DNA of 64,000 nt. Source: Candidatus Bathyarchaeota archaeon. GTDB taxonomy: Archaea > Thermoproteota > Bathyarchaeia > Bathyarchaeales > Bathycorpusculaceae. The stretch is from contig CAWAKC010000004.1 in assembly GCA_963782525.1 (NCBI GenBank), forward strand, positions 32,001 through 96,000. The letters run 5' to 3'. The notes beneath the pieces were generated by a model that was given only the letters and a program-made list of their open reading frames with translations, had not been told where the DNA came from and did not search any database. A program made the translations under genes and the position numbers. Every line of letters starts with the position of its first letter. Positions within the stretch are counted from its first letter, which is position 1. Below are positions 17,123 through 44,998 of the stretch, piece after piece.

Positions 17123-17925
17123 ACACGATAAAAGCAACTTTCCAAAAAGTCAAAGCCAAAGGCGACGGTTTGCTCATCGGTTATATCACTGGAGGAGATC
17201 CAACACCAGAGCAGACGCCGAAAATTGCAGATGCACTCATCAAAGGCGGCGTTGACATCTTAGAGTTGGGGCTGCCGTTTTCTGATCCCATTGCTGATGG
17301 ACCAACAATTCAGGCGGCAAGCCTCCGCGCCCTAAACGCCGGCACAACGCCGATGAAAGTGCTGGAAATCGCGAAAGAAATCAAGAGCCAACATGACATA
17401 CCCATCTTAGTGATGACATACTATAACCCAGTGTTCCATCTTGGACTCGACAAATTCCTTGCGTCCGCCAAAGATCATGGTGTTGACGGTTTCATTGTTC
17501 CCGATTTGCCCGTTGAAGAAGCAGATGACTACCGAAAAGCTGCGATGGAGCATAGTTTGGACACGGTTTTCCTTGCTTCCCCAGCCACCTCAAACGAGCG
17601 TCTCACCAAAATCGTTGATGCGTCATCAGGTTTCCTCTATTTGGTTTCGCGTTTCGGGGTAACCGGCGCCCAATCTGATTTGGCAGATTCAACGATGCAG
17701 CTTATCAAACGAATTCAACCATTTACGGCAGGAAAGATTCCGTTGGCAGTTGGCTTTGGAATATCAAAACCAGAGCATGTCAAACGGGTGATTGGGGCAG
17801 GAGCTGATGCAGCCATTGTTGGAAGCGCATTCATAAACATTATACAAAAAAACAGCCCAAACATGCTAAAAGAACTTCAAACAACAGCGCAAGCCCTCAA
17901 AACAGCAACAAGAAAGTCGAAGTAG
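17119..17925 (+). CDS. trpA: Tryptophan synthase alpha chain
   Basis: [27 protein letters not shown]. Confidence 0.97.
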
Positions 17926-28617: not shown

Positions 28618-29638
28618 AGACGTGTGCGCAATTCATTTTTTATAGTTCCGATAGGTAAGTTATCTTTGAGCAAGTCTGGGATCGTACCCGTAAATACCAT
28701 TGATTTGGTGTCTTTGAGGGCTCCATGATCATTTGTTGTTGGGTCAAGCCCAGTACTTGCTTACCGTTTTTAGACTTTGCTCGCCAACAATAAGCGATCG
28801 TATTGCTTCAGCATCATAACTAATCAAGCCAGCCATCACAATAGCCGCCTTCTTCACCAAACCCTTAGGCCTCACCCAGCAATTCCTCAAAACGTTAGCT
28901 TTAAGATGCCCATTAAACTGCTCAACCACATAACGCTTAGTCTCCAAGAGTCTAGCATGTTTGATTCTTTTGCGTTTTCCCCTTCTAGGATTAGGAGCAA
29001 TAACAGGCTCAGCTTCAATGCCCTTGGCTGCTCTTTTGTTTGTTTTCGAGTCATAACCCGCATCGGCCAAAACGTATTCTGCTTCCAAATCCTCAATGAG
29101 ACCGGGAAGAAAAGGCGAGTCATAACGATTACCAGGCGTAACAACTGCTCTCAACGGCAACCCCAGCTGATTTACCGCTGCATGAAGCTTGAAACCTCTG
29201 AATTTTCCACGGCTCGTGTGACCCCAGCCCGCTTCCATATCGTAGAGATCCACTAACGGCGTTGAGTCAACAATTAGAATAGTGGTCGGTGTCACTAGTT
29301 GAAGCATAGCCGATATCTTCTTAAAAGTTTCTTCAAGAACGTCAAGATAGCGTCTCCACCATCTTCCAACAGTGGTTCTATTGGGTACTTTGAATAAACC
29401 AAGTGTTCTAGCAACGTCCGTATGCTTCTTTAGATGTTCAATTACACGTGTGTCGTTCTCTAATCCTTTCAGTCTGGCATAAACGAGAACTCTTAGTGCT
29501 CTTAGGCGTCCGTAGCCTGGATTTCCGCGTCTTTTGGGTTCTACAGAAACGATTGCTTTGTTGACGAAAAGCCTGACAACTTCACAGGCTTCCATACTAG
29601 AACATAATTGGGAAGCAGCTTAAATTCTGCACACCCCT
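28618..29638 (-). mobile_element. Insertion sequence (~1.0 kb, DDE, IS4/IS5-like)
   Basis: Imperfect TIRs AGACGTGTGCGCAATT / AGGGGTGTGCAGAATT; 9-bp TSD AAACAGTTT at 28609-28617 and 29639-29647. Confidence 0.85.
28744..29595 (-). CDS. DDE transposase
   Basis: IVDST, GFKLH, ADAGYD, RYVVEQFNGHLK. Confidence 0.92.
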   Translation of the reverse strand: MEACEVVRLFVNKAIVSVEPKRRGNPGYGRLRALRVLVYARLKGLENDTRVIEHLKKHTDVARTLGLFKVPNRTTVGRWWRRYLDVLEETFKKISAMLQLVTPTTILIVDSTPLVDLYDMEAGWGHTSRGKFRGFKLHAAVNQLGLPLRAVVTPGNRYDSPFLPGLIEDLEAEYVLADAGYDSKTNKRAAKGIEAEPVIAPNPRRGKRKRIKHARLLETKRYVVEQFNGHLKANVLRNCWVRPKGLVKKAAIVMAGLISYDAEAIRSLIVGEQSLKTVSKYWA

Positions 29639-29672
29639 AAACAGTTTTTTTTAAAGAAAAATAAACAGTTTT

Positions 29673-29951
29673 TTAGCTGGTCAGTTCAACTATTGAACCG
29701 ATTGCTTGTCCTGGAACGCCACGTACAAACCTTACTCTAACCATGCCGTTCTTTCCATGTGGACCTCTAACTTTTCCCACAAGCTTTTTTGTTCCATTCT
29801 GCCATGTAACCTTTTGTCCAATTAGTTTACTTGCAAGGGCAACTGAGGTAACATTTTCAAATTCAATTAAACATTCTTGCGATGTTTGTTCTCTAATCCC
29901 AGTGCGGTAATTAGTTATTCTTCCATGAACTTTTTGAGCCAAAATACTCAC
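29673..29951 (-). CDS. rpl35ae: 50S ribosomal protein L35Ae
   Basis: ITNYRTG...QECLI...GKVRGPHGKNGMVRVRFVRGVPGQAIG; GTG start chosen by length. Confidence 0.88.
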   Translation of the reverse strand: MSILAQKVHGRITNYRTGIREQTSQECLIEFENVTSVALASKLIGQKVTWQNGTKKLVGKVRGPHGKNGMVRVRFVRGVPGQAIGSIVELTS

Positions 29952-30094
29952 CGTTAAACCTCCCATTCTAAGGTGTGCTTGCATTTAAAGCTGTTCTATC
30001 CAACCAAAGAAACTTTGGATTTTCTATGAAGTGAGTTATCTGTACAAAACTTTTATTGACTATTACATGTTTTAATGAATTAGGATGAGGTTAA

Positions 30095-30871
30095 ATGAAA
30101 CAATTTCTTCTAACTCCCCAGGCAGGAAAACGTTTAATCGGCAGAACCTTGGCAAGTCACCCAGTCATCATAAAAGCACTAAAAAATGGAACCGTGGTAA
30201 TTGTTGCTGGAACAACAAATGGTTATGTAGCTGAAGAAATCCTCAAGATTCACAAAATAGCTGATGATTTCTCAAGAGAACACTTTTTCCGGGGTTTAAC
30301 TTTGCCTCCATCCAAAAAGGTGTCCTTGGAAGGCAGGTTAGAGGATGAAATCAAGTTTCCTGGCGACGTCGTGATAAATAGGGGCCTTTGGAAAAGAGGA
30401 AAAACAATCGCTGATGTAATTGACTCTCTAAAAGAAGGGGATGTTATCTTAAAAGGAGCAAATGCCCTGGATCTAACGCGTAAGCAGGCCGCTATTTTGA
30501 TTGGTCATCCCAAAGCAGGAACCATCGGGTTAGCAATACCTGCGATTGTGGGCCGCCGAGTCAAATTGATTATTCCGGTAGGTTTAGAGAAACGGATAGA
30601 TGGCGATTTAAATGCTCTTGCTGAGATGCTAAATACCCCTGGAGCGTGCGGGTATCGTTTGCTTCCCGTCAACGGAGAAGTGTTCACGGAAATAGATGCC
30701 CTGACGGCTTTGACTGCAGCCAGCGTGAAGTTAATTGCCGCTGGCGGAATTTGCGGTGCAGAAGGCGGATGCTGGATAGCTGTCACTGGCGAAAAAGAAC
30801 AAGAGGAATTTGCCGAGCAAATAATTGCCTCGGTGGCGGATGAACCGCCGTTTAGCATGGATTTCCTTTAG
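30095..30871 (+). CDS. Conserved hypothetical protein
   Basis: [42 protein letters not shown]. Confidence 0.7.
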
Positions 30872-30876
30872 TTTCT

Positions 30877-31080
30877 TTATTCTTGGCCATGATGCATCAT
30901 GCCCATTCCCATACCCATGCCTTTTCTTCTTTCTCCCATGTTTTTTCTCCAGATGTCAGCGCCCTGCGAAGCTAAATCCATCATCATGTCAATGTCTTGT
31001 CTAACTAGATCCATCACTGGCTTGTTTAGTTCCATTTCAAAGGTAAACTTTACTTTACCCGCTTTTTCTACTGTTTCCAT
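30877..31080 (-). CDS. Small protein with Met/His-rich tail
   Basis: Ends KGMGMGMGMMHHGQE; strong GGAGGTGG RBS. Confidence 0.65.
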   Translation of the reverse strand: METVEKAGKVKFTFEMELNKPVMDLVRQDIDMMMDLASQGADIWRKNMGERRKGMGMGMGMMHHGQE

Positions 31081-31290
31081 AAATCCACCTCCTCAAGAAT
31101 CAAAAAACGATCAATAAAACTACCTTATTGGTTAACGATTGCATTCTTAAACGTAAGTGGCTGTATCGATACAACAACAGTTCAAATGTGGCATCAACTT
31201 TTTGGGGTTTGGTCTTCTTTTGGTTTTTGTGTCAAACTTTATATATTGGGCTGGATAATCCATCCAGATATAAGGGGTTTAAAGGAAAAA

Positions 31291-32277
31291 ATGAACAAAA
31301 AAGTTACAATTTCTATTGTCGCAGTATTAATAATCGTCGTAATAGTTTCTGGCGCTTTCATCTACACCAACAACAATGCAGGTTCAAACAAAACGGGTTC
31401 CCAAAACCTATCTGTAATAGACGATGAAGGATACACAACTAATTTCGCCTCAGTTCCTCAAAGAATCATTTCGCTAGCTCCAAGTAACACTCAAATCCTT
31501 TTCGGCATTGGCGTGGGCGACAAAGTTGTAGGTGTTACCGATTACGATCACCTCCCTTACAATTTCGCCGCATGGATAGCCGCAGGCAACATGACAAGTG
31601 TTGGAGGCTTTTCCACACCTAACAAAGAAGCCATCGCTTCACTCCACCCAGATCTAATTCTCGCCACACCCATAAACGATCCTGACGTTGTCACACTCAG
31701 AAGCTTAGGCTACAATGTGTTGGTCTTAAATCCCAACGATGTTAATGGGGTGCTCAAAGATATCACAATGGTTGGCAAAGCAACAGGAGGCGACCAAAAC
31801 GCAACGACATTAGTGAATTCCATAAACAATAAAATCGCTTCCATAGAATCGAAGATAGCAGCCGCGAATGAGACTAAGCCGCTGGTTTACTATGAGGTCT
31901 GGTATCCCGACCCGTTAATGTCGGCAGGTTCAACATCATTTATCAATGATGTAATTGCAAAAGCCGGAGGAATAAACATCTTCGAAAACGAAACACAGCA
32001 ATATCCTACCGTCAGCTCAGAGACAATTGTTCAAAAGAACCCTGATGTTATAATGCTACCAACCGATATGGCAAACCCAGGAGACACACCGTTCTATGGA
32101 AGTGTAGCACAGGTAAAAGAAAGACCTGGCTGGAGTTCAATTAGTGCAATTCAAAACAATCGAATAATCGTCGTCGACGGAGATCTATTTGCTGAAGCAG
32201 GTCCCAGAATCGCCGAAAACATTGCAGTCGCTGCCCAAGCTTTCTACCCAGACCTTTTTAACTCCACTTCCCCTTAA
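31291..32277 (+). CDS. btuF: Corrinoid ABC transporter substrate-binding protein
   Basis: PQRIISLAPSNT, VVGVTDY, AGGINIF, NPDVI, GPRI; cobalamin-gene context. Confidence 0.85.
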   Translation: MNKKVTISIVAVLIIVVIVSGAFIYTNNNAGSNKTGSQNLSVIDDEGYTTNFASVPQRIISLAPSNTQILFGIGVGDKVVGVTDYDHLPYNFAAWIAAGNMTSVGGFSTPNKEAIASLHPDLILATPINDPDVVTLRSLGYNVLVLNPNDVNGVLKDITMVGKATGGDQNATTLVNSINNKIASIESKIAAANETKPLVYYEVWYPDPLMSAGSTSFINDVIAKAGGINIFENETQQYPTVSSETIVQKNPDVIMLPTDMANPGDTPFYGSVAQVKERPGWSSISAIQNNRIIVVDGDLFAEAGPRIAENIAVAAQAFYPDLFNSTSP

Positions 32278-32296
32278 TCTTTTTTTGTGTTAAGAT

Positions 32297-33379
32297 ATGA
32301 CTGCGGACAAAGTAGAGATTAAATATTCAAAGCGCCATTCAAGATGGAAACTGATCTTATTAGCTTTGATAGTTGCGCTCATTGCTGCGATAGTTCTTTG
32401 TTTAAACATAGGTTACGCACCAATCAATTTCTCAGATATTATTACAATATTGGGCAAGCAAATTCCTTTTCTTAACGGCTCAATAAACTCTTCATCAGTA
32501 TCAACCGTTGATCAAGCAATAATTCTCCAAATCCGTCTCCCCCGAATTCTAGCAGGTGCTATTGTAGGAGCAGGTTTAGCAGCCGCTGGTGTCATGTACC
32601 AAGGCGTCTTTAGAAACCCGATGGCTGATTCCTACCTTTTGGGTGCTTCAGCGGGGGCATCTTTGGGCTACACTCTAACTGCGATTTATGCAGGCTCTCT
32701 TGCTCTAACTTTATTTGGACTTGGAGTATTTCAGGTAATTGCTTTCATAGGTGCTGTTTTAACAGTTTTCCTTGTTTACTTTATGTCCCGTGTTGGAAAC
32801 AAGGTGCCGATAACTACACTTCTGCTCTCAGGTATCGTTGTAAACATATTCATTTTGGCACTTCAAACAGTATTTGAGCTACGTTCTGGTAAGGCTCTAA
32901 TAGGTATTATTGCTTGGATAGCAGGTGGATTTTCAAACATTACTTGGTTGGACATTTACGCTGTTTTTCCATTTGTTTTGATTGGGATTGTTCTTGCATA
33001 TTTTTTTACTAAAGATCTTAACATGCTCTCTATGGGTGATGATACAGCACAACATTTGGGCGTTAACACTGAAAGGGTGCGGCAAATTCTTTTGCTCATA
33101 AGTTCTTTAATAACAGGCGCGGTTGTATCTATCAGCGGGGTAATAGGGTTCGTTGGGCTAATTATTCCACACATGACCCGACTCGTCATTGGACCTGATC
33201 ACCGAATTCTTCTTCCCACATCCGCAATTGTAGGAGCTATTTTCCTAATTCTCTGTGATTCTCTAGCTCGTGTTGCAACCGGAGCATCAGAGCTGCCAGT
33301 GGGAGTCATAACTGCTTTAGCTGGAACCCCATTCTTTATCTATCTGCTTAGGAAAAGAAAAACAAGTTACTCACTGTAG
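32297..33379 (+). CDS. btuC: Corrinoid ABC transporter permease (FecCD/BtuC)
   Basis: IRLPR, FRNPMAD, GVIGFVGLIIPH, ELPVG. Confidence 0.88.
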   Translation: MTADKVEIKYSKRHSRWKLILLALIVALIAAIVLCLNIGYAPINFSDIITILGKQIPFLNGSINSSSVSTVDQAIILQIRLPRILAGAIVGAGLAAAGVMYQGVFRNPMADSYLLGASAGASLGYTLTAIYAGSLALTLFGLGVFQVIAFIGAVLTVFLVYFMSRVGNKVPITTLLLSGIVVNIFILALQTVFELRSGKALIGIIAWIAGGFSNITWLDIYAVFPFVLIGIVLAYFFTKDLNMLSMGDDTAQHLGVNTERVRQILLLISSLITGAVVSISGVIGFVGLIIPHMTRLVIGPDHRILLPTSAIVGAIFLILCDSLARVATGASELPVGVITALAGTPFFIYLLRKRKTSYSL

Positions 33380-33394
33380 GATGGCTGATGGAAC

Positions 33395-34747
33395 ATGGTA
33401 CTGCTTAGCGTAAATGGAGTTGAATGCCGCTATGGTTCGGTGAAGATACTGGAAGATGTCAACTTTACCGTCAACGAAGGCGACTTCGTGGGAATAATTG
33501 GACCCAACGGCTCAGGAAAAACTACCCTGCTAAAGAGCATCAGCCGAACCCTCAAACCCTACAATGGAACCATAATCCTCGATAAATCCGACATTTACAG
33601 CTTGAAAAGCGTAGATTTAGCCAAACAAATGGCAATAGTTCCACAAGAAAGTAACATAGGCTTTAGCTTCAGTGCTTTAGACATCGTGATGATGGGACGC
33701 AACCCACATATGAAAAGGTTCCAAATGGAATCGGATACCGACTTAACCATAGTCCGCAAAGCAATGAACCGAACCAACACTTGGCATCTAGCGGACAGAC
33801 CGATAAACGAATTGAGTGGTGGAGAAAAACAACGTGTCGTCATCGCCCGTGCATTAGCTCAGGAACCCAAGGTTCTGTTGCTTGATGAACCGCTTACGCA
33901 TCTGGACATGATTAACCAGCTTGAAATTATGGACCTTGTGAAAGAATTATGCATTAAGGAACGATTAATTGTTTTAGAAGTTATCCATGACTTAAACCTG
34001 GCAGCACGCTACTGCAGCTCGATTTTGCTTCTTAAGGATGCAAAGATTTTTGCTGCGGGACCCGTAGAAAATGTTCTGACAAGTGAGAATATAAAGGCTG
34101 TTTTTAACGTTGACGCAATCGTCAAAAAAAGCCTTGTCACGAATTCTCTTTTCGTAATTCCACTCACTCTCCAAAAGCCGTCGATGCCACGCAACTGTGC
34201 TATCCACCTTATTGCAGGAGCGGGCACGGGAACAGTTGTTATGAAGGCGTTGGTGGATGAAGGCTATCAAGTAACGGCTGGGGTACTCAACATGCTCGAT
34301 ACAGATTACGAGACTACTGAGCTTCTCAAAATTCCAACGGTTAGCGAAGCGCCTTTTTCACCCATAACTGACCAGTCAAAGAAACTGCTTCATGAAATGA
34401 TAAAAAAATCTGCTATCATTGTGGTGACGTCGGTTCCGTTTGGTTATGGTAATCTCTCTAACCTAGAGACGGCGCTTGAAGCGGTTAAACAGGGCATCAA
34501 AACTTATGTCATCGATGAGGTGCCTATTGAAAGTCGCGATTTCACAGCTGGCAAAGCTACCGCCTTGATGGCTGAATTAAAGAAAGAGGGTGCGATATTC
34601 ATCAAGCATCCTTCCGAGCTTCCAACGCTCGTTAACGCTACTCACGCACAGATGGAATTGCTAAAGAATCCCCCCAAGATTCCGGGACATGTAAAGGATG
34701 CATCCGAAGTAATCACTCAGTCTGCTAATCAAAAAGAGGTAACTTAA
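33395..34747 (+). CDS. btuD: Corrinoid ABC transporter ATPase with C-terminal extension
   Basis: GPNGSGKTT, LSGGEKQR, LLDEP, HDLNLA; extra HLIAGAGTG...EAPFSPI domain. Confidence 0.88.
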   Translation: MVLLSVNGVECRYGSVKILEDVNFTVNEGDFVGIIGPNGSGKTTLLKSISRTLKPYNGTIILDKSDIYSLKSVDLAKQMAIVPQESNIGFSFSALDIVMMGRNPHMKRFQMESDTDLTIVRKAMNRTNTWHLADRPINELSGGEKQRVVIARALAQEPKVLLLDEPLTHLDMINQLEIMDLVKELCIKERLIVLEVIHDLNLAARYCSSILLLKDAKIFAAGPVENVLTSENIKAVFNVDAIVKKSLVTNSLFVIPLTLQKPSMPRNCAIHLIAGAGTGTVVMKALVDEGYQVTAGVLNMLDTDYETTELLKIPTVSEAPFSPITDQSKKLLHEMIKKSAIIVVTSVPFGYGNLSNLETALEAVKQGIKTYVIDEVPIESRDFTAGKATALMAELKKEGAIFIKHPSELPTLVNATHAQMELLKNPPKIPGHVKDASEVITQSANQKEVT

Positions 34748-35851
34748 TTGTCCTCAAAAGAAGAAGCCATACAAAATTTTGGCGCCGAGAAATACGGCAA
34801 CAAACTTGACCACTTCATCTGGTCATGCACCCGAGCTTACCCAGTAAAACACGCTTTCTCTCTTGGTGACGGAAAACCCCTTCCCAACGAATTAGCAACC
34901 GCAGAAGCGAAGGTTATGCTAAAGAAGGTGGCGGATTTTGGGGTAGACAACATTTTCATTTCAGGCGCTGGCTGGACAGGCGAGCCGTTGATGCGCAAAG
35001 ACTTTATAGAAATCATTCGCTATGTTGCTGAATTAAAACTGTCTCCTTACGTGAAGGTTACTGGTTGGCACTTTACTGCTAAAGTTGCCCAAGAGCTCGC
35101 CGATGCAAATTGTAAGGCCATTATCTGTTTTGCTGGGTTACAGGAAGTTGATGCTAAACTGCGTGGAAAAGGCGCTTTTGAAGATGGTATTAACGCTGTC
35201 ACTTTGTGCAGAGAATTCGGTATTCCATTCGCCATGAGCGTTATCAACACAAAATATGTTGCCAACCAAGTTTCAGATTTAGTTAAACTTGCAATCACGT
35301 TGGGAGCACGCAGCTTCCATCTGGCCTCCCTTATTCCTCAGCCAATAGACGTTGAAAACCAGTTCAAGATTCTTGGACCACTCGAGCCAACGCCCCAACA
35401 AAGAGAAGACCAGCTCAACGAAATCTATGATCTTAACAAAAAAGTCCAGGACAAAATCCTCATCGTACCCTATGAAATGTTCAACAACCGCGTACTCAAA
35501 ACCAAAGAGCCCTCGCGCGAACTAAGGAGCACCTGCAGCATGTGCGATAACCTCAAAAAATACGAGTGGCTGGAGATTCTCGAAGACGGAAAAGCATACG
35601 CTTGTGCACCGTTAAACTTGGAATTCGGCGATATACGAACTGATAGTATACAGCAAATCATGGATCGCATGCCCAAATCTAAAGAACTGATGAGGTTAGC
35701 AGACCGTAATAACCTCAAGGGCAAATGTGGTTTATGCGAATTCAAAATCATCTGCGGGGGCTGTCGCGCCCGGGCTTACATCTTTAGCAAGGACAGTTTA
35801 AACCAGGACCCAGCATGCGTCTATCGACCAGCCGCGTTCGGAAAAAATTAA
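34748..35851 (+). CDS. Radical-SAM-fold/SPASM protein lacking the CxxxCxxC motif
   Basis: TRA-Y-PVK-H-AF-S in place of CxxxCxxC; ELATAEAK; TGEPLMRKD; intact SPASM KCGLCEFKIICGGCRARA...DPAC. Confidence 0.8.
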   Translation: MSSKEEAIQNFGAEKYGNKLDHFIWSCTRAYPVKHAFSLGDGKPLPNELATAEAKVMLKKVADFGVDNIFISGAGWTGEPLMRKDFIEIIRYVAELKLSPYVKVTGWHFTAKVAQELADANCKAIICFAGLQEVDAKLRGKGAFEDGINAVTLCREFGIPFAMSVINTKYVANQVSDLVKLAITLGARSFHLASLIPQPIDVENQFKILGPLEPTPQQREDQLNEIYDLNKKVQDKILIVPYEMFNNRVLKTKEPSRELRSTCSMCDNLKKYEWLEILEDGKAYACAPLNLEFGDIRTDSIQQIMDRMPKSKELMRLADRNNLKGKCGLCEFKIICGGCRARAYIFSKDSLNQDPACVYRPAAFGKN

Positions 35852-35854
35852 GAA

Positions 35855-36496
35855 GTGACTGAAATGGCAAAAGATGGCAAGATTGAATCATTTGCTTTCC
35901 TCAAAAAACAAGCTTTCGAATTGGGTGCTGAAGACGCCAAAATCATTCCTGTTAAAAAAATCGTCATCGAAGACCGTGTAGTTTTCAAATGCCAACTCGG
36001 CTGCGAAAAATACGGAAAAACCTTAGCCTGCCCACCTCACGCTCCCACGCCTGAGGCATTTCGAAAAATCGTCAGTGAGTATCACTATGCCCTGTTCATG
36101 AAATTTAAAACGAAGGTCGAGGGCGATTCAGATCTGATAAAGTATCTTTCCAAAGCTGATGAACCCTCCATTCCAGCAGATATGAAGTTGAAAGTGGAAA
36201 AATTCTGGTCTGGCTGGAAAGATGAGATGAAAAAACTACTCGATGTTGTTCATGACCTTGAAAAATCGGCTGCAAAAGGAGGATATCTGCTTGCTGCTGG
36301 CTTGGTTTCCGGTGCATGCCAATTGTGCGAAAAATGCAACGTTGAAAAAGGAATTTGTATTCACCCAACTATGAAGCGGTATTCAGAAGAAGGCGTCGGA
36401 GTTAACGTTAAGGCAACTGCGGAAAAAGCTGGAATAAAATTCACTCTTCCGTTTGATAAGAATCCTGAAACCTTCGCTTTGCTCTTAATAGATTAG
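35855..36496 (+). CDS. DUF2284 family metal-binding protein
   Basis: KCQLGCEKYG..LACPP, GACQLCEKC...CIHP..RYSEEGVGVNV. Confidence 0.85.
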   Translation: MTEMAKDGKIESFAFLKKQAFELGAEDAKIIPVKKIVIEDRVVFKCQLGCEKYGKTLACPPHAPTPEAFRKIVSEYHYALFMKFKTKVEGDSDLIKYLSKADEPSIPADMKLKVEKFWSGWKDEMKKLLDVVHDLEKSAAKGGYLLAAGLVSGACQLCEKCNVEKGICIHPTMKRYSEEGVGVNVKATAEKAGIKFTLPFDKNPETFALLLID

Positions 36497-36582
36497 ACAA
36501 GACTAACTTGACACGCACGTTCCGAGCTAACCTTAAGTAACAAAAACTGAACTTTCATTAAAAATTAAAAGAGGGCTAACCG

Positions 36583-37686
36583 ATGAAGATGGACACAGGA
36601 ATAGAGAACATTATAGCAGAAGTCAAAGATCAAACTCTTGTTATATGGTCAAAAAAACCCCTCAGGATTCTCAGCTCTGCCCTTTTGAATGGAGGTTTGG
36701 TTGAGGCAAATGGAATTATCAACGTTCAGGTTCCTGAAGGCTCTGGCAACGACCAGGACGATATGCACTGGAGTGGTCCCGAAAACTTTTTGGTAAATGT
36801 AGCAAACCAACTTCAACTTCCAAAGGACAAAGTAGTTGGGTTGATGACTGCTGCCAAAATGAAGAACGTGGTTGCATTTACCGAAAAATATGATGCTGTA
36901 ATCTTGACAGTTTTCGTGACAGCTGGCGCAACTGTGGCTGTGGCAGCAGGTGAGCCGGCAGCTTCAAAGAGTCAACTCAAAAAAATCGGCACCATAAACA
37001 TCATAATAGTGGTTGACGGAAATTTAACAGACGGCAGCATGGTGGAAGCCGTAAAAACAGCAACTGAAGCAAAAACTGTCGCCATACGTGAATTGGATAT
37101 TAGAAGTCGTTTCTCAGGCGACCTTGCTACAGGAACATTGACGGACAGCCTTGCAGTAGTTTGCACCAAAAAAGGTGAACCGATACAGTATGCTGGAACC
37201 TTCACGATTATTGGCGAGTTGATTGGGAAGTGTGTGCGGGAAGGAGTGAAAACGGCAATTTATAAACAGGAAAACATTTGGCCTGACCGACCGCTCGTAA
37301 CTAGGTTGGCGGATAGATGCCTCTCGATTGAAACCATCATAGTCCAAGCGTCTGAGGGAAAAATAACGAGCAAAAACCCTCAGTATAAGGCGCTCCAAAA
37401 ACAGCTTGAATTGATACTTTCAGACGGGAAAATCTCATCATTTGTCATTGCCGCCTTGAGGCTTGATGAAGATTTAGCGAAAGGACTGTTCCCCAAAAAA
37501 ACAGCTGAAACCGTTGACCAGACTTCTTTTGAGATGATTGTTCAAGCAGCGTCAAAGTGCCCTTTGGAAAATTTGGCAAACTTTGCCTTTGACAAGGCAA
37601 AGCCTGAAGATGAAGGACAATTAGGGCCATTTACGAAATGCGCTTTGCAGGCTATCCTCCAAAAAGCCCGTTCAAACATTACCTGA
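36583..37686 (+). CDS. cbiZ: Adenosylcobinamide amidohydrolase CbiZ with C-terminal CobZ-like extension
   Basis: LSSALLNGG, GLMTAA, GTINII, TEAK, ATGTLTD. Confidence 0.85.
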   Translation: MKMDTGIENIIAEVKDQTLVIWSKKPLRILSSALLNGGLVEANGIINVQVPEGSGNDQDDMHWSGPENFLVNVANQLQLPKDKVVGLMTAAKMKNVVAFTEKYDAVILTVFVTAGATVAVAAGEPAASKSQLKKIGTINIIIVVDGNLTDGSMVEAVKTATEAKTVAIRELDIRSRFSGDLATGTLTDSLAVVCTKKGEPIQYAGTFTIIGELIGKCVREGVKTAIYKQENIWPDRPLVTRLADRCLSIETIIVQASEGKITSKNPQYKALQKQLELILSDGKISSFVIAALRLDEDLAKGLFPKKTAETVDQTSFEMIVQAASKCPLENLANFAFDKAKPEDEGQLGPFTKCALQAILQKARSNIT

Positions 37687-37758
37687 TTGTTTTTGCAGTT
37701 CGTCTTGCCCTTGTGACATAGAAAAGTATTACTGATTCCTTAAAGGGTATGCATAGAT

Positions 37759-38460
37759 ATGGATCTGTCGTCGATAATATTTATCCTTCTCACTGGGCTA
37801 GGATTAGGTTTAGCACATTCGATGGATCCAGACCACATCGTCGCCGTTTCTACTCTAATGTGCAACAACAAAAGTCTCCGCAAATCCATAGCCTCCGCCA
37901 CCATTTGGGGATTTGGGCACTCAGCAGTTCTGTTCATTATCGGATTATTGGTTCTCACCCTAAGTGTTGTGATTCCCGAAACAGTCGTTCACTTGTTTGA
38001 CGCAGCCGCTGGAGTTCTGCTAATAATCCTTGGCGCATACGTGTTAAGACCATTAATTGCTCAAAGAATCCGTCCCAACCAAAATGTCCATGAACATACC
38101 CACATCCATCCACATACGCATCCGCATTCCCATAATCACGAGCACGACAACGAAGACCATCATGGACACGCTCACCTGCATAAATCAGCCCTAACAGGCG
38201 CCTTGCAGGGACTGGGAGGAAGCGCCGCCCTAATGCTGGTTACGCTATCAACCGTGAATTCAGTTGAGATTGGAGCGGTCTTCATTTTTCTCTTCGGCGT
38301 TGGCGTCATTTTGGGCATGGTGGGGATTTCATGCGTGGTCGGGTCTGTAATGGCTTATACAGCTTCAAACCTTGAAAAAGTAAACAAAATAATCAAAGCC
38401 CTCACAGGCTCAGCAAGCATCGTTATCGGCGTAGTAATTATCGTATACGCTTTGATTTAG
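37759..38460 (+). CDS. His-rich Ni/Co transporter (NiCoT/UreH-like)
   Basis: HSMDPDH, WGFGHS, central HEHTHIHPHTHPHSHNHEH loop, GLGGSAAL. Confidence 0.85.
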   Translation: MDLSSIIFILLTGLGLGLAHSMDPDHIVAVSTLMCNNKSLRKSIASATIWGFGHSAVLFIIGLLVLTLSVVIPETVVHLFDAAAGVLLIILGAYVLRPLIAQRIRPNQNVHEHTHIHPHTHPHSHNHEHDNEDHHGHAHLHKSALTGALQGLGGSAALMLVTLSTVNSVEIGAVFIFLFGVGVILGMVGISCVVGSVMAYTASNLEKVNKIIKALTGSASIVIGVVIIVYALI

Positions 38461-38631
38461 AAACATTTGGTTACATCAACATTTTTTCTGCGAAGTCAAA
38501 GATGCATAAAACAATTTAACATAGTTCTTAAAACTTAGGTGGAACCCTACAAACAGTTAGCTTTTCTTTTACTTTAGCAAAAATTAAAAAAAGGGAATGT
38601 GTTGGGGATAATCAACATTTATGCGGTTAAT

Positions 38632-39189
38632 TTAACTGGTTGTAAAAAGCGAGTCGTTGAGTGTAGGATTCACTTGAATATCGTAGATAACGATCGATGC
38701 ACCGCTTGGGGCAGAGTATGAATAACTTGTTTGGCCAGTCCAGTTAATTAGAGCAGTTTGGTAGTCAGCGAACGCTACAATATAAGACGAATCATTGTTG
38801 AAGTCACTTGATGTCCATGCGCCATCATTAATCTTGAGGGAGGATGTTTGAGTGCCAAGGTCTACGATGTAGCTGTAGTTGCCTGCGCTGCCGCCTAGTA
38901 TGTCCATTCTTAGCACTTCGGTTGTAGTGTTTACGTTCTTAGCTGCAAAGTTGTAGCTTACTAGTTGTCCGCTGGTGGTTTCGTTAACTTTGAATTGCAG
39001 TGTACTCGCGCCCACAACAGATGGGGCAGGTGTTGGTGAGGGTGTAGTTGTCGGGTTTGTTGTTCCGCCGCCTCCATTATTCATCAAAACATAGGCGGAT
39101 ACTCCAGCAATGATTATCACAATCACTAAAACCGCAACGATTAGGTACATATTTTTTTTATTCATCGAATCACCGGTTTTTTCTGACAT
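38632..39189 (-). CDS. Secreted/membrane-anchored hypothetical protein
   Basis: N-terminal TM, Pro/Thr linker, C-terminal VNPTLNDSLF. Confidence 0.7.
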   Translation of the reverse strand: MSEKTGDSMNKKNMYLIVAVLVIVIIIAGVSAYVLMNNGGGGTTNPTTTPSPTPAPSVVGASTLQFKVNETTSGQLVSYNFAAKNVNTTTEVLRMDILGGSAGNYSYIVDLGTQTSSLKINDGAWTSSDFNNDSSYIVAFADYQTALINWTGQTSYSYSAPSGASIVIYDIQVNPTLNDSLFTTS

Positions 39190-39264
39190 TCTCTTTGGAT
39201 TGAAATTAGATATAAGGTTTGTCCAGAAAGCGCTAAACCGCTTAAAAAGGATACATAAAAAAAA

Positions 39265-41355
39265 TTATCTTTCGATTGAAATTCTGCTGACTCCGCCTTC
39301 TTTTTCAAGAGTAATAACATGGTCAGCTTTTGCGGCAAACGCTTCACTGTGGGTGACGGCGATTATTTGTTCGATCGCTTTGAATCGGCTGATGGCTTCA
39401 GCTAACCGTTCTATGCTGCCATCTTCGCTGCCCAAGTTCTCGGTGGGTTCATCAAGCATCAGCATACTTAAGCCATGGCCTGTCCTTGATTGCATAATCA
39501 GTTGCCCCAAGCCTAGCCGATAGGCAAACGCTAAAAGTGTGCGTTCTCCGCCTGAGAGGTTACTGACTTCGCGTTCAACGTCAGTTTCGCTCTTCACATA
39601 AGGTGTGTAAGTCTCGTCGATAACCACGTTAAGCATCGGGGTTTCACCGCAAACTAAACTATCAAGAACCTGCTGAACAAAGTTACGCAGGACCTTCACG
39701 AATTCGCTTCTCAGTTTGGGCTGGATGCTTCGGTAAGCAACTCGAATAGCATCGAGGATTTCAACGGTTCTGCGGATTTTCTCCATGCGCTCCATCTTTT
39801 CCTGCGCCAAGTTGATGCGTTCTTTGTTATCATCTAAACGTTGGGCGAGGTCTTTTTTCCGGTTCTCCTTTGTGCGTAAATCTGATTCTATGGCATAATA
39901 TTGTTTGAGAGCATGTTCCCTGTGCACCCTGGTTTCTTCAACATCGGAGACGTTGAATTTGCCGATTTCAAACTGCACCACCTGCAACTGTGAGTGAAAA
40001 TCCGCCTCAAGTTTCTGTTTCTCAGCAAATTCAGTTATGAGGCTGGCGAGGTTGTTTTCTTCTTCTCCTATTCTTGCTTTCAAATCGGCATCCCGAGTGA
40101 AACAGGTTTGTAAACTCGAAAATGCTTCAGAAGCCACTGCCTTTGTTTTCTGTAGGTCAGCAACATCCAGCCTAAGCTTGTTAATCGTTTTTTCCCGTTC
40201 AATGTTTTCCTGTTTTATCCTCTGCAGTAAACCTATTTTATAATCGCCAGTTAAGGGCTGAACACATAGGGGACACTTATCTTCCTCTGATAATTGCCCA
40301 ACTCTTTTCTGGTCGGTCTGCAGACTCCGCGTTGTTGCTTCCTGCTCAGCCTTTAAACTGCTGATTTTATCGTCAAACCCGGCTAAACAAGAACCCAACT
40401 GCTCTAAGGGCTGATTAGCTGGTAATCCTGCTTGCTCAAGCTTCACCAAACACAGCTTTATCTGAGAATCCAGCGAGCTTTTGCGCTGCCGCAAATTATC
40501 CACTATGGTTTTCTTGCCTTCAATACGCTGGTTAATCGAAGCTAACGTTGCAGTCATGTTGCTTATATCGGCGTTTATTCGTGTTTCTTTGCGCTTAAGC
40601 TCCTCTACGGCGAGTTTTTTCTCTTCCAACTGTTTGAGCTCGGCGTTTGCTTCATCCAGCGCCCTCTTCGCCACTGATAGCTTCTGGGTTGCTGTCTCCA
40701 AATCCATCTCTAGGAGCGTGAATTCTTCGCTTGCACGGTTGTAGTCGTTGCTGAGTTTTTCTACACCGAGAACATCAGGGTCTTTTTCATAAATCCTCTT
40801 CTCTGTATCGTAATCACGTTGGTATTGGGCAATGTTGCTCCATGCAACCTCATAATCGGACAACCCAAATAATTCATCCAACCGAGTCTGCCTATCCCGC
40901 GGCTTAGCATCAAGCAGGTCCTTGAGGTGTTCCTGTCTAAACCAGACGATTTCGCGGTAAAGGTCCCTGTCAAGCCCCGTGATGGCTTTAAACTGTTCAG
41001 CAATGGCTTCCATTTTCATGCTTGCCACCAGCCTGTCGTCCTCGTAGAGTTTGAGTTGTTCAAGGTCTTGGCTGATGCTTTTGCCCTTACGTTTTAAGCC
41101 TCGGGTTAACTTGTAAGTGCTGCCGTTTTGGGCAAACTGCACCGTAACTCTGCACCAGTCAGCGTCTTCCCGCATGAGGTACTCAAAGCTTCTGCTGCCG
41201 ATTGTGTCGCCGAAAAGTGCAAAATCGATGGCGTACATAACGCTGGATTTACCGCAGCCTACCCCGCCGACTAAGCAGTTAAACCCATGTGTGAAGGGTA
41301 CGGTGGATTTTGTGTGGCTGCGTATGTTTTCGAGCTGCACTATTTCGATTTTCAT
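39265..41355 (-). CDS. rad50: DNA double-strand break repair ATPase Rad50
   Basis: GGVGCGKSS Walker A, coiled coil with CPLC Zn hook, LSGGE, LDEPT, VTH. Confidence 0.92.
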   Translation of the reverse strand: MKIEIVQLENIRSHTKSTVPFTHGFNCLVGGVGCGKSSVMYAIDFALFGDTIGSRSFEYLMREDADWCRVTVQFAQNGSTYKLTRGLKRKGKSISQDLEQLKLYEDDRLVASMKMEAIAEQFKAITGLDRDLYREIVWFRQEHLKDLLDAKPRDRQTRLDELFGLSDYEVAWSNIAQYQRDYDTEKRIYEKDPDVLGVEKLSNDYNRASEEFTLLEMDLETATQKLSVAKRALDEANAELKQLEEKKLAVEELKRKETRINADISNMTATLASINQRIEGKKTIVDNLRQRKSSLDSQIKLCLVKLEQAGLPANQPLEQLGSCLAGFDDKISSLKAEQEATTRSLQTDQKRVGQLSEEDKCPLCVQPLTGDYKIGLLQRIKQENIEREKTINKLRLDVADLQKTKAVASEAFSSLQTCFTRDADLKARIGEEENNLASLITEFAEKQKLEADFHSQLQVVQFEIGKFNVSDVEETRVHREHALKQYYAIESDLRTKENRKKDLAQRLDDNKERINLAQEKMERMEKIRRTVEILDAIRVAYRSIQPKLRSEFVKVLRNFVQQVLDSLVCGETPMLNVVIDETYTPYVKSETDVEREVSNLSGGERTLLAFAYRLGLGQLIMQSRTGHGLSMLMLDEPTENLGSEDGSIERLAEAISRFKAIEQIIAVTHSEAFAAKADHVITLEKEGGVSRISIER

Positions 41356-42554
41356 TCGGTCAGCTCCTCGATGGCTTGCTTCACTTTGTCGTCCTGTTTG
41401 CGGGTTAAGGGCTCAATTAAGTCTAGGGCGGCTTTAGCGATTTTTTCCGCTTCTTCTTTGCCGTAACGGGCAGAAAAAATTTCCACAAAATATTCAAAAC
41501 CCTTGGTTTTTAGGTCTTTAAAGTTGCCCTCGAATATGGACCGCACGATTTCGTCAGCAACCGCCGTTTCCTTTAGCAGAACGATTGGGTGAACAAGCAG
41601 GGCTTTTGGGGCAGCGCCTCGGATTTTTCCCACGTCGATTTCTGTTCGGCTTGCCTCAGGGGGTAGCGTTCCTTTGAGAACTGGAATTATCACTGCGCCT
41701 TCCGTTTCTGAGTCTCGAACCATTTGGGTCGCTAACTCAGTGATTTTGGCTGAAGACATGCCCGAGAAATCTTGTTCAGCAATGACGAATCTGCGGGGAG
41801 AAGCCAGCTCGATTAGTTCAGGTTGAACCTGGCCTTTCTCATCAACCTTTACATGGTAAAATCCTTTAGGGTACTTGGCTTCACTGTAGCTGACTGTTTC
41901 TGTGCAGCCGCTGTAAACCAAAAATCCATCCTTAAACTTGCCCAGATACCTTTCATGAACGTGACCAGCCGCGTAATAACAAAACCCGCTTGGCAACTCG
42001 TCAGGCAGGATTTCTGCTTCAAAAGGTCCCTTGAGGCTTGGAATATCTATGGCACCGTGAAAAACAAAGATGTTGGCTACGCCAGCTTTAGGAGTTGGTG
42101 GATTTTCCTCCATGAATTTTGGCAATGCTTCCTGCGTTTTGTGGCGGTTATGGTAGGTTGGGATGCCGTAGACGTAGCAGCGATCCGGTTTGCTCCAGCA
42201 TGCACCCTGATGCCTGGGCAAATGAGTGATTAAACCTGCGCTGTCAAGGGGATAGAGGATTGTGCTCGTTATGGTGTTTGGGGCAGAATCATGTGACCCG
42301 TCAACCGTTAAAACTGGGATGTCTGCATCTTTTAGCCGCTTAAAACTGCGTATAGTGTTTTCGAGGGTGTGGTTAGATGGTCTGGCTTGGTGAAAGAGGT
42401 CGCCGGCGATAATCATGAAGTCGGGTTTGAGCTCGATTGTTTTATCCACGACTTCCTTGAATGCGTCGTCAAAGTCTTGCCTTCGCGCTTCTAACCCGTA
42501 TTGAGAATACCCCAAATGCAGGTCTGCTGCATGGACAAAGCTGAACGGCTTCAA
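41352..42554 (-). CDS. mre11: DNA repair nuclease Mre11
   Basis: ADLHLG, AGDLFH, GSHD, AGHVH, YSG. Confidence 0.92.
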   Translation of the reverse strand: MKPFSFVHAADLHLGYSQYGLEARRQDFDDAFKEVVDKTIELKPDFMIIAGDLFHQARPSNHTLENTIRSFKRLKDADIPVLTVDGSHDSAPNTITSTILYPLDSAGLITHLPRHQGACWSKPDRCYVYGIPTYHNRHKTQEALPKFMEENPPTPKAGVANIFVFHGAIDIPSLKGPFEAEILPDELPSGFCYYAAGHVHERYLGKFKDGFLVYSGCTETVSYSEAKYPKGFYHVKVDEKGQVQPELIELASPRRFVIAEQDFSGMSSAKITELATQMVRDSETEGAVIIPVLKGTLPPEASRTEIDVGKIRGAAPKALLVHPIVLLKETAVADEIVRSIFEGNFKDLKTKGFEYFVEIFSARYGKEEAEKIAKAALDLIEPLTRKQDDKVKQAIEELTE

Positions 42555-42855: not shown

Positions 42856-43825
42856 TTAGACCCCGAAAAAATAAATTCTTAAAGCCAAAAACGGAACAAC
42901 TACAACCAAACCAAACAGTGCAGCTGTAACTTTCATCATTCTCAAAGCCTTTGGGATATGTTCATGCGAAATTCCATAGTCATCGCCTAATGTGTAGTGG
43001 CCTTGTTTTTCAAGCTGAATGTTCAAGGCTCCTGCCATAGCTGAGATTGTGTAGCCTGCGTTGGGGCTTGCGGTTTTGTGTTTGTCACGTTGCAGGATCC
43101 GGTAGGATTCACGCCAATCCTCACGCACAATGAATGCGGCCGCAACCATCAAGTAGGCTGTTACGCGCGGGAATATAGTTGGTTATTGTATCCATTTTGG
43201 CGGAGAACCAACCGATGTTTTTGAATTCCAAGTTCTTGTAGCCAACCATCGAATCTAAAGTGTTAATTACTCGATAGGCAAAAGCTCCTGGAACTCCGAA
43301 AAGCGCGTAGAAGAAGAAGGGTGCTGTTATGCCGTCTGTGGTGCTTTCGGCAATGGATTCGACGGCTGCAGAAATAATCTGGCGTTCATTTAGGCTGTTT
43401 GGGTCACGCCTAACAATATAGGGCAACCATTTTCGTGCGCCAGCTAAATCTTTCTGTTTGAGGGTTTTTGCTATGGGAAGGGTATATTGTCCCATGCCTC
43501 TGATAGCGAAGGTTGCTTTGAACAGGATTGCGCCGACGATTACGTAGAATATTTCGCCGTAGGGCAAGGTTCTTAACCAGAAAAGTAACGCTAAAACTGG
43601 GAGCGCGACAACCATCATGATTGCTAATGCCATTAAAACGCCGTTTGCTTTCTCAATCCGTGGATTTGAGCTCTTTGCTCTACGTTTAAGGTATGAAATC
43701 ATTTTTCCTATGCCAATGGTTGGGTGAATCCTATTAGGGTACTCCCCAAAAACCAAGTCGATTAAGAAAGCTAAAGCAAAAATCAAAATTGAATCCAAAA
43801 GCAACGAGAGGTTAAGCGCAAGCAT
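42856..43825 (-). pseudogene. cbiB: Cobinamide-phosphate synthase CbiB, split by a 1-nt frameshift near 43165 (possibly sequencing error)
   Basis: HPT, ESIAES..DG, YRVINTLDSMVGY, NYIPAR | SPNAG...AMAGAL in two frames. Confidence 0.8.
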
Positions 43826-43834
43826 AGCGATGAA

Positions 43835-44998
43835 TCAAACTGCCTTTAATGTTTGCTTGAATGCTTCAATCAACCGCTCATTCTCCACATGAGTCTTGAT
43901 AGCAACCCGAATGTAAAACTGGTCAAGTCCCTTAAATGATGTGCAATCTCGAATTAGAATACCCTGCTTGAGCATTCTGTTCTTTATTTCTGCTGCGGTT
44001 AGGCCTGACTTTCGAATTTCGATGAAGAAGAAGTTTGCATCTGGAGTAGAAAATTTGAATGAACCAAATTTTTCCATCTCACTTTGTAGCCACGCTTTCT
44101 CTTTTTCGATAAGCTCACATGTCACTTTGAGGTGTTCTTCATCTTTTAGTGCAGAAACGGCAGCCGCTTGAGCTAAACAGTTAACATTCCATGGAATCTT
44201 GGCACACGAGAGTATGTTTATAATACCTTCGTTGGCAATACCGTAACCAACTCGCAAACCCGTTAACCCATAAATCTTTGTGAAGGATCGCAGAATGAAC
44301 AGGTTGGGAAACTGCTTGATTCTGCCTATCATTGTCAGATTCTTTTTGTCTTCAACAAACTCTAAAAAATCCTCATCGAGGAAAACAAGAGTGCTTTGTT
44401 TTAGGGCTGTTTCAATGATGTCTGTAAGTGTTTCTTTGGGGATGAGTTTACTAGTTGGGTTGTTTGGATTGCAGAGAAAAACCAGCTTTGCATCAGCCAT
44501 CTCATGTTTAAAGGCTTCTGAGTCAATGTTGAAGGCTTTGTTTAGTTTGGCGAATTTGGGTATTATCCCAGTTTTGCGGACTGCGCTTTCGTATTCGCCA
44601 AAAGTTGGCGCTGGCATAACTACTTTGTCACCTTCTTTTAGGAAAACCTCAGCGAACAAATACATCAGTTCAGTGGAGCCATTCCCGACAACTATGTGGC
44701 CTTTGTTGATTCCATAGTGGTTAGCTATGACTTGTCGCAGCTCGTTGGAGTTTGAGTCGGGGTAAGCTGCAATTTGGCTGAAGGCTGCCTTTGCGGCGCC
44801 CAAAGCTTTTTTGGACGGACCCAGCGGGTTTACGCTGGAACTGAAATCTAAAATATTCTGCGGCAAAAGCCCACTTTCTTCTGCAGCACCTAAAACCTCT
44901 GCACCGTGAACGCAGGGCTTTAGATTTTTAACGCTATCCTTGATTAGGCTTTCAATGGGCTTCAATGTTTTTTCCTTCAGCTGCGCCGTAAATTCCAT
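43835..44998 (-). CDS. cobD: Threonine-phosphate decarboxylase CobD (HisC-like PLP enzyme)
   Basis: DFSSSVNPLG, GNGSTEL, CNPNNPT, RSFTKIYGLTGLRVGY, IRDC; adjacent to cbiB. Confidence 0.82.
   Translation of the reverse strand: MEFTAQLKEKTLKPIESLIKDSVKNLKPCVHGAEVLGAAEESGLLPQNILDFSSSVNPLGPSKKALGAAKAAFSQIAAYPDSNSNELRQVIANHYGINKGHIVVGNGSTELMYLFAEVFLKEGDKVVMPAPTFGEYESAVRKTGIIPKFAKLNKAFNIDSEAFKHEMADAKLVFLCNPNNPTSKLIPKETLTDIIETALKQSTLVFLDEDFLEFVEDKKNLTMIGRIKQFPNLFILRSFTKIYGLTGLRVGYGIANEGIINILSCAKIPWNVNCLAQAAAVSALKDEEHLKVTCELIEKEKAWLQSEMEKFGSFKFSTPDANFFFIEIRKSGLTAAEIKNRMLKQGILIRDCTSFKGLDQFYIRVAIKTHVENERLIEAFKQTLKAV

Follow-up and report, generated by a model that had tools for sequence, protein, structure and literature searches.

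A radical-SAM/SPASM homologue without the CX3CX2C cysteines among corrinoid-salvage genes of Bathyarchaeia

The proteins AhbD, AhbC and NirJ of heme and heme d1 synthesis unite a partial TIM barrel of the radical S-adenosylmethionine (SAM) type with a SPASM domain. In AhbD from M. barkeri, the auxiliary clusters are held by C223/C256/C274/C324 (AuxI) and C312/C315/C321/C342 (AuxII), according to the published account (PMC10452713). Here we analyze a 64,000-nucleotide stretch of DNA from a Candidatus Bathyarchaeota archaeon (contig CAWAKC010000004.1, positions 32,001 to 96,000; hereafter the window), in which the gene directly downstream of btuD encodes a protein of this architecture, named pRS, that has no CX3CX2C motif. 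The best curated models for pRS are AhbD (TIGR04545, 142.1 bits) and NirJ2 (131 bits). It shares with these families the partial barrel and the SPASM domain, and its cysteine pattern fits the AuxI and AuxII ligands of M. barkeri AhbD. It differs from them in the missing CX3CX2C, in scores far under the cut-offs of 500-650, and in a genomic context of corrinoid uptake instead of heme or heme d1 synthesis. With 142.1 bits against a cut-off of 500 and a position outside the AhbD clade, pRS is not the heme b synthase AhbD. The label “AhbC/AhbD/NirJ-type”, given in a preliminary description made from the letters of the window alone, is therefore too narrow, although these models are indeed the best curated matches: the nearest kin of pRS form an uncharacterised Bathyarchaeial clade (representative P0123 and the proteins of loci L013, L038 and L045). 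Some members of this canonical clade share with pRS the slot behind btuD, with btuF and a DUF71 gene near; unlike pRS, they keep CX3CX2C, a plain SGGEP and IPxGR.

SPASM proteins without the radical-SAM cysteines have already been curated. The pseudo-SAM/SPASM family TIGR04347 consists of a radical-SAM-like N-terminus without the cysteine motif and a SPASM domain, and is of the same kind as pRS but not of the same descent; pRS reaches only 92.9 bits (cut-off 525) and is no member. In a genome search with this model, pRS obtained 71.8 + 22.1 bits and its canonical paralogues up to 210 bits. Since pRS scores below paralogues that keep the motif, its cysteines were lost independently. The TIGR04347 cut-off was exceeded in only one of 14 control genomes, the family is to our knowledge restricted to haloarchaea, and we found no paper on TIGR04347 or pseudo-SAM in the openly accessible literature. 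The GeoRSP protein TIGR04304 likewise has a SPASM domain but no radical-SAM chemistry, and its name pairs it with a radical-SAM/SPASM enzyme. It belongs to a different system, for which we know of no corrinoid link, and pRS matches it through the SPASM part only (32.3 bits, cut-off 300). pRS thus fails both cut-offs, and its origin is independent of these families.

The usual scheme of archaeal cobinamide salvage runs from BtuFCD through CobA, CbiZ and CbiB onwards, and Bathyarchaeia are an abundant uncultured class that depends on corrinoids for methyl transfer. Cobalamin processing coupled to import or adenosylation is represented by PduS (an Fe-S cobalamin reductase), MMACHC/CblC and BtuM. 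Cytoplasmic uptake, reduction or upper-ligand removal, and handing-on of the cofactor in these systems could serve as a working analogy for pRS; they have no sequence kinship to it, have other folds and are not derived from radical-SAM proteins. For Bathyarchaeia, PMC11697101 reports BtuFCD with an adjoining CbiZ as a salvage route. We found no account of the pRS family or its B12 context in the openly accessible literature; the supplements of PMC11697101, with figures of B12 loci, lay outside this search and may show the genes.

Sequence and descent of pRS

The pRS reading frame opens with TTG at 34748, directly after the btuD stop codon TAA (34745-34747) and with zero gap, so that the gene abuts btuD as first described. 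Its translation across the degenerate motif is WSCTRAYPVKHAFSLGDGKP, and residues 25-38 read WSCTRAYPVKHAFS. Y31, H35 and S38 match the three cysteines of CX3CX2C at the same spacing in a MAFFT alignment with canonical relatives and, independently, in an hhalign profile-profile comparison of 21 family members with 15 canonical relatives (probability 100, E 1.1e-83, 339 columns). Stop codons are present in both alternative frames over this stretch. The preliminary claims that Tyr/His/Ser replace CxxxCxxC at equal spacing and that no other frame restores the cysteines are thereby confirmed. Pfam recognizes Radical_SAM (PF04055) in residues 43-165 with 30.2 bits (cut-off 29.5) and SPASM (PF13186) with 24.2 bits (cut-off 21.5); with respect to the radical SAM superfamily, pRS has the homology of the barrel core and lacks CX3CX2C. 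One short-read DNA contig from a public run matches 34734-34884 with 0 differences; this contig may stem from the source sample and is therefore not independent support.

The replacement is shared by the homologues of pRS. A word-indexed search found 296 of them at E≤1e-5; among the matches listed, 120 span 51-89% identity. The motif pattern located the site in 102 of these 120, in 5 further homologues the site is present behind a variant prefix, and the other 13 are fragments or truncated at the N-terminus. The three-Cys CX3CX2C is found in none of the 107 listed homologues spanning the site, which upholds the conservation of the Cys-less motif that the preliminary description had proposed to check. 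The commonest triplets are Y/H/S (62), Y/Y/S (16) and Y/Q/S (5), and a single Cys stands at one triplet position in 9 homologues. Residues were counted in an alignment that comprised 97 rows of the family and 42 canonical ones. The three motif positions hold cysteine in 1, 4 and 4 of the family rows, versus 42/42 canonical rows each. Y31 occurs in 88/93 family rows, position 35 is H in 65 and Y in 20 of 96, S38 occurs in 90/96, and an invariant L39-G40-x-G42 directly follows the replaced motif.

An exhaustive search of representatives with pRS returned 4976 matches at E≤0.001. Among the matches listed, the full-length representatives without the motif are P0093, P0121 and P0124, with a minimum of 260 bits and 37% identity; P0123 retains CX3CX2C at 265 bits and 42% identity to pRS, and the full-length match next below this group scores 149 bits. 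Of the 135 listed representatives with 300 or more residues, 13 have no CX3CX2C string. Three of these are the family members, and most of the other 10 resemble N-terminally truncated gene calls. We built a quick tree of 107 rows, excluding sequences of <300 or >420 residues and the near-duplicates L001-L006, and a careful tree of 46 rows picked from those 107 (IQ-TREE, LG+C20+F+G4 PMSF). Both trees agree that the Cys-less proteins are a single clade (support 100/98) that requires one state change. The canonical P0123 is its sister (100/99), and the two together join the Bathyarchaeial canonical radical-SAM/SPASM clade (100/99). AhbD/AhbC-like rows from Chloroflexota, Archaeoglobales and others fall apart from these, across a branch with 100/99 support. 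No closer relative of P0123 was found among 301 genomes of the class, pRS-family members being the sole finds. The pRS family is small, archaeal and mostly Bathyarchaeial, and it descends from a tetrapyrrole-modifying radical-SAM/SPASM type.

Between pRS and four orthologues (84-90% identity), the nonsynonymous divergence (dN) is 0.057-0.10 and the synonymous divergence (dS) 1.5-1.9; dS is near saturation, so the resulting dN/dS of 0.04-0.06 is rough. For the pair formed by the window and L001, dN is 0.057 for pRS, 0.053 for btuD and 0.074 for btuC, and the barrel half is constrained no less than the SPASM half in three of the four orthologue pairs. The loss of the cysteines happened once and was then held under strong purifying selection. 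The proposal of repurposing rather than decay stands accordingly: the motif loss is kept down to 37% identity, forms one clade and is accompanied by purifying selection on both halves. The same description had held that closest homologues retaining CxxxCxxC, together with relaxed selection in this copy, would speak against it. The canonical kin do keep the motif, but the dN/dS check gives no sign of relaxed selection in pRS, and the objection falls. That pRS is a decaying relic, or an artefact of annotation or sequencing, is extremely improbable. Its patchy occurrence within the genus and the split or truncated state of three of 13 genus copies would fit such a relic; against it stand the low dN/dS, a dN on a par with btuC and btuD, a family conserved to such low identity, and a DNA contig identical across the motif. 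Where pRS copies are split, btuF/C/D are split too, as in L006, which points to assembly errors.

The SPASM cysteines had been described as intact, and they are: C263, C286, C327, C330, C336, C339 and C357 are kept in 97/97 family rows, which gives the complete seven-Cys set of SPASM domains. In an alignment to AhbD, with its ligands as cited above, three AuxI ligands are matched by C263, C286 and C339 and those of AuxII by C327, C330, C336 and C357. The fourth AuxI position is taken by Y242 in 97/97 family rows, where canonical rows have Cys in 13/42. An extra cysteine, C266, occurs in 94/97 family rows at a position that is Gly in 37/42 canonical rows. Because Y242 replaces the fourth ligand position and a new conserved C266 has been gained, AuxI appears to be rewired yet complete, with C263/C266/C286/C339 as its putative ligands.

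The GGE, ribose and beta-6 motifs of radical-SAM proteins contact SAM. The GGEP motif of pRS, noted earlier as altered, reads SGAGWTGEP versus SGGEP, that is, with an insert of four residues that carries a Trp; the few distant members without the insert read ITGGEP. Further canonical SAM-site motifs have changed, TNG to VTGW in the subclade of the window and IPxGR to IPQPI. Common to pRS and its canonical relatives are G73, G78-E79-P80, R83, D85, G106, G130, R139-G140, P197 and the SPASM cysteines, and the pRS family has new invariant polar residues at R29, K103, D135, N167, T168, Q198 and R248. The conserved C27, C122 and C154 are unlikely to form a new cluster site: canonical relatives have V/I/L at these positions, which suits residues of the core better than ligands. 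For pRS, the ESM Atlas returned only generic radical-SAM/SPASM clusters, and sequence searches of the PDB gave only weak matches to SkfB, PqqE, anSME and similar proteins. Fusions of pRS were absent among proteins of 644-2000 residues at E≤1e-30, which is weak evidence.

Linkage to corrinoid salvage

The link to corrinoid genes is the strongest comparative result. The pRS family accounts for 11 of the 80 loci returned from a genome collection and for 15 of the 80 returned from a metagenome collection. Corrinoid-salvage genes flank all 11 genome loci, when DUF71 is counted for L010: btuF, btuC or btuD are present in 10, cbiZ in eight and DUF2284 in seven, and the eleventh locus, L010, has a divergent DUF71/PF01902 gene. 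A B12-salvage role was proposed by De Crecy-Lagard and colleagues (PMC3541065) for a DUF71 subgroup, which may include the L010 gene. Distant members have gene orders of their own, namely BtuF, pRS, small radical-SAM, CbiZ, small radical-SAM, BtuC, BtuD, CobD, CobQ in L008 and pRS, BtuC, BtuD, CbiB in L011. Among the metagenome loci, 12 of 15 have at least one of btu, cbiZ, DUF2284, DUF71 and cbiB; of the others, L130 has only a small radical-SAM gene and L089 is without a flank. Within the genus (41 genomes), cbiZ lies ≤4 kb from pRS on the same contig in 13/13 carriers, and DUF2284 lies ≤0.5 kb from it in 12/13. By comparison, a btu or cbi gene occurs at only 8 of 69 loci of canonical paralogues. 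The salvage neighbourhood is thus conserved in divergent members, and the btu/cbiZ synteny, which the preliminary description had named as a check, holds in distant members of the family.

The host genome (2.87 Mb, 12 contigs, 95.8% complete) yielded no CbiC, CbiD, CobA or PduO and contains two CobS, two CbiZ, CbiB and CobD. The absence of CbiC and CbiD with CobS, CbiB, CobD and CbiZ present marks the host as a corrinoid salvager. The substrate of CbiZ is adenosylcobinamide, according to PMC3541065, which raises the question of whether pRS stands in for CobA. As a non-radical SAM-dependent enzyme, pRS would transfer the 5'-deoxyadenosyl group from SAM to cob(I)inamide, which the SPASM clusters would have reduced, and so replace CobA/PduO. 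The lack of both enzymes in the host, the lack of CobA in 10 of 12 carriers tested, the retained G78-E79-P80 of the GGE motif and the substrate of CbiZ all suit such a transfer, which we nevertheless consider very unlikely. CobA (PF02572) is above its cut-off in 82/121 genomes of the order versus 1/12 of the genus, that is, its absence is genus-wide; nine genus genomes have neither CobA nor pRS, and CbiZ is present in 41/41 genus genomes sampled, five of the nine included. Two carriers with distant family members, G128 and G130, possess CobA as well as pRS. Moreover, the SAM-contact motifs are remodelled, with the Trp-bearing GGE insert and the loss of the GR of IPxGR. Replacement of CobA by pRS is therefore largely rejected. 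Across the order, CobA is found in 14/39 genomes that hold the canonical clade versus 68/82 without it, a contrast confounded by kinship since this clade occurs in six genera only.

Candidate roles of pRS and its canonical sisters

Based on the above comparisons, we tentatively favor a reading in which pRS is a cytoplasmic corrinoid-binding Fe-S protein that would reduce corrinoids after import, or unload them, and hand them on to CbiZ/CbiB. The chaperone, sensor or SPASM-based electron carrier suggested in the preliminary description are candidate roles as well. Without the cysteines of the radical-SAM cluster, it would be unable to generate a 5'-deoxyadenosyl radical, with SAM cleavage and probably SAM binding lost. 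It would carry two auxiliary [4Fe-4S] clusters, AuxI at C263/C266/C286/C339 and AuxII at C327/C330/C336/C357. The corrinoid delivered to the cytoplasm by BtuCD may bind in the ancestral tetrapyrrole pocket; AhbD, NirJ2 and NirJ are the best NCBIfam models, and such an ancestry fits a tetrapyrrole ligand. pRS could then reduce the cobalt centre and free a foreign upper ligand, with electrons possibly relayed by the neighbouring Cys-rich DUF2284 protein, and hand the corrinoid over for remodelling by CbiB and by an amidohydrolase, either CbiZ or DUF71. In order of falling support, the steps we infer are the loss of SAM chemistry, corrinoid binding, cluster-driven reduction, and delivery to CbiZ/DUF71 and CbiB.

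The same synteny and conservation data would suit an escort or buffer without redox function, which binds the imported corrinoid and hands it to CbiZ/CbiB while the SPASM clusters are purely structural. Translational coupling to btuD likewise suits a receiver of the transporter's cargo. Seven SPASM cysteines and the recruited C266 (94/97 family rows) seem excessive for a scaffold, yet structural clusters do exist, and we rate a non-redox escort as somewhat unlikely.

Several observations weigh against a redox-active corrinoid protein wired into the pathway. Family members occur in only 13/41 genomes of the genus, 2/121 of the order sample and 3/301 of the class sample, and pRS is dispensable in close kin. 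In G160, the genes run btuF-btuC-btuD-DUF2284 with btuD abutting DUF2284 and no remnant of pRS between them; at L175:1329-1967, DUF2284 directly follows btuD where pRS is missing. Among the 13 copies in the genus, those of G139, G144 and G148 are split or truncated, by assembly error or decay. The broken pRS of L006 is accompanied by broken btuF/C/D, and such splits at split-pRS loci make an assembly error plausible, decay in some lineages being possible. The btuF/C/D identities in the window are best matches that remain under the NCBIfam cut-offs. DUF2284 has paralogues in unrelated contexts, including a second copy in the genome among housekeeping genes, and the metagenome locus L094 (4.6 kb) has no adjoining corrinoid gene. 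pRS is an accessory module and not an obligatory part of the pathway.

In G144 (L176:5570-6283), the order is DUF2284, btuFCD, a short CbiZ, ORFs of 237 and 227 residues, and then pRS, in which a frame change near residue 205 splits the gene.

The favored role as a corrinoid-handling Fe-S protein matters because it concerns a protein with Fe-S sites and radical-SAM ancestry that is wired into a salvage operon, in a genus mostly without a recognisable adenosyltransferase. Once shown, the function of pRS would extend archaeal B12 salvage by a step or a handling protein, supply a clean natural case in which a radical-SAM enzyme has become a non-radical protein that carries clusters, and provide a handle on the role of the uncharacterised canonical sisters. 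Should pRS be only an optional escort, it would still be a useful marker of salvage operons, of narrower interest.

Canonical sisters of pRS occupy the same slot directly after btuD in L013, L038 and L045. After btuD, L045 has tandem canonical pairs, and L013 contains the remnant of a second copy. In L013 and L038, the operon also includes a DUF71 (PF01902) gene; the gene order in L038 is GlmS-like, BtuF, DUF71, BtuF, BtuC, BtuD, radical-SAM/SPASM, and the Cys-less locus L100 parallels it with CbiB, CobD, DUF71, BtuF, pRS, BtuC, BtuD. None of these canonical proteins reaches an NCBIfam cut-off, the best model being AhbD (188-229 bits versus 500). Their place behind btuD ties an uncharacterised radical-SAM enzyme likewise to Bathyarchaeial corrinoid import, and from gene order and similarity these genes look like an uncharacterised radical-SAM step linked to it.

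Such neighbours could also mean that pRS assists an active radical-SAM enzyme as its non-catalytic partner or as a regulatory subunit, to which end it would supply substrate binding or electron transfer. The partner would be a canonical paralogue or an adjoining small, activase-like radical-SAM protein. Besides the canonical sisters in the slot behind btuD, with the tandem pairs of L045 and the second-copy remnant of L013, small radical-SAM genes adjoin pRS in L008, L095 and L130, where they take the place held by DUF2284 in the subclade of the window. Canonical paralogue matches occur in 41/41 genus genomes, at one to four per genome and mostly three, and NCBIfam names a pair made up of a SPASM-only protein and a radical-SAM/SPASM enzyme (GeoRSP, TIGR04303/TIGR04304). 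In the subclade of the window, however, the adjoining gene is DUF2284 and no radical-SAM gene is found there, and the three canonical paralogues in the host genome are found on other contigs, where their contexts are mixed. We regard a partner subunit as unlikely.

A broader proposition, which we hold to be quite unlikely, is that pRS and the canonical sisters behind btuD mark an unrecognised step of archaeal corrinoid salvage derived from radical-SAM chemistry. The corrinoid would lie in the tetrapyrrole pocket, with its cobalt near the former place of the radical-SAM cluster, and electrons from SPASM would drive an exchange of the upper ligand. In its boldest form, this exchange would be adenosylation in lineages without CobA and PduO. 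The canonical sisters would carry it out with a 5'-deoxyadenosyl radical, and the Cys-less form either by way of cob(I) chemistry or as a substrate holder for a partner. The remaining probability falls to a function outside all the readings named here.

The window locus

The genes around pRS run in the order 258-residue hypothetical protein, BtuF-like, BtuC, BtuD, pRS, DUF2284, CbiZ and His-rich membrane protein, with CbiB and CobD 5 kb further on (Table 1).

Table 1 Features of the window, followed by genes of comparison loci (coordinates preceded by the locus label)
Feature	Position	Strand	Basis or remark
trpE-G-D-C-B-A operon	12310-17925	+	ordinary housekeeping
IS-type DDE transposase (DDE_Tnp_1, DUF772)	28744-29595	-	just upstream of the L35Ae gene that borders the salvage cluster
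Conserved 258-residue hypothetical protein	30095-30871	+	no Pfam or NCBIfam match
BtuF-like substrate-binding protein	31186-32277	+	Pfam Peripla_BP_2, 130.5 bits
BtuC-like permease	32297-33379	+	FecCD, 299.6 bits; NF007081, 299 bits vs cut-off 461
BtuD-like ATPase	33395-34747	+	ABC_tran, 121 bits; corrinoid ABC ATPase NF007082, 340 bits vs cut-off 537
GAGGT box resembling a Shine-Dalgarno ribosome-binding site	34736-34740	+	inside the 3' end of btuD, 7 nt 5' of the pRS TTG
pRS, Cys-less radical-SAM/SPASM homologue	34748-35851	+	367 residues, TTG start
Degenerate cluster-binding motif Y31-x3-H35-x2-S38, then family-invariant LGDG	34838-34861	+	aligned onto CX3CX2C
GGE motif with 4-residue insert (G73-A-G-W-T-G78-E79-P80)	34964-34987	+	MAFFT, hhalign
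SPASM region with C263, C266, C286, C327, C330, C336, C339, C357	35534-35818	+	alignment, Pfam SPASM
DUF2284 Cys-rich predicted metal-binding protein	35855-36496	+	PF10050, 148.3 bits
CbiZ adenosylcobinamide amidohydrolase	36583-37686	+	PF01955, 196.5 bits
233-residue membrane protein with His-rich loop	37759-38460	+	no Pfam match; nickel/cobalt efflux NF007454 weak, 28.8 bits vs 195
Rad50/Mre11	39265-42554	-	ordinary housekeeping
CbiB, cobinamide-phosphate synthase family	43121-43825	-	PF03186, 231.9 bits
CobD threonine-phosphate decarboxylase	43835-44998	-	TIGR01140, 306.9 bits vs cut-off 290.55
Diphthine synthase Dph5	45347-46144	+	TIGR00522, 292.8 bits; TP_methylase, not a corrin enzyme
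Canonical CX3CX2C radical-SAM/SPASM genes directly after btuD	L013:7956-9041, L038:7956-9038, L045:4252-6448		gene order
Small (250-295 residues) activase-like radical-SAM genes beside distant pRS	L008:2527-3414, L008:4246-5010, L095:6938-7759, L130:370-1131		

The ESM Atlas places the 258-residue protein in “hypothetical protein” clusters only. Its gene stands directly 5' of btuF in L001-L004, L006 and L009 and adjoins btuFCD-DUF2284 in L175, a recurrent position that suggests that it may be a member of the operon. For the BtuF-like protein, the NCBIfam models of BtuF and of heme-binding proteins all stay under their cut-offs. BtuD has a C-terminal extension of ~190 residues past the ABC domain (ABC_tran covers residues 19-167 of 450), the model of the archaeal corrinoid ABC transporter ATPase spans residues 2-349, and homologues of like length occur in L005, L008, L013 and L045.

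DUF2284 is present in 32/41 genus genomes, and the literature mentions that we found give no function for it. The protein encoded in the window has seven cysteines, with the motifs Cx3Cx8CPP and Cx2Cx2Cx6C. CbiZ bears a C-terminal extension of ~140 residues and matches CbiS (CbiZ plus alpha-ribazole phosphatase) partially, at 153.5 bits versus 250; this long type of CbiZ accompanies pRS in 10/13 genus carriers. The membrane protein with the His-rich loop is conserved 3' of cbiZ in L002-L004, L006 and L009.

A scan of 29000-39500 with Rfam gave no cobalamin riboswitch or other family at E≤0.1. In three metatranscriptome runs from three studies, contigs from relatives match parts of pRS at 88-98% identity, and one RNA-library contig of 642 nt spans the junction of pRS and DUF2284 (35408-36046). 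These contigs are a weak hint at expression, since DNA can occur in RNA libraries.

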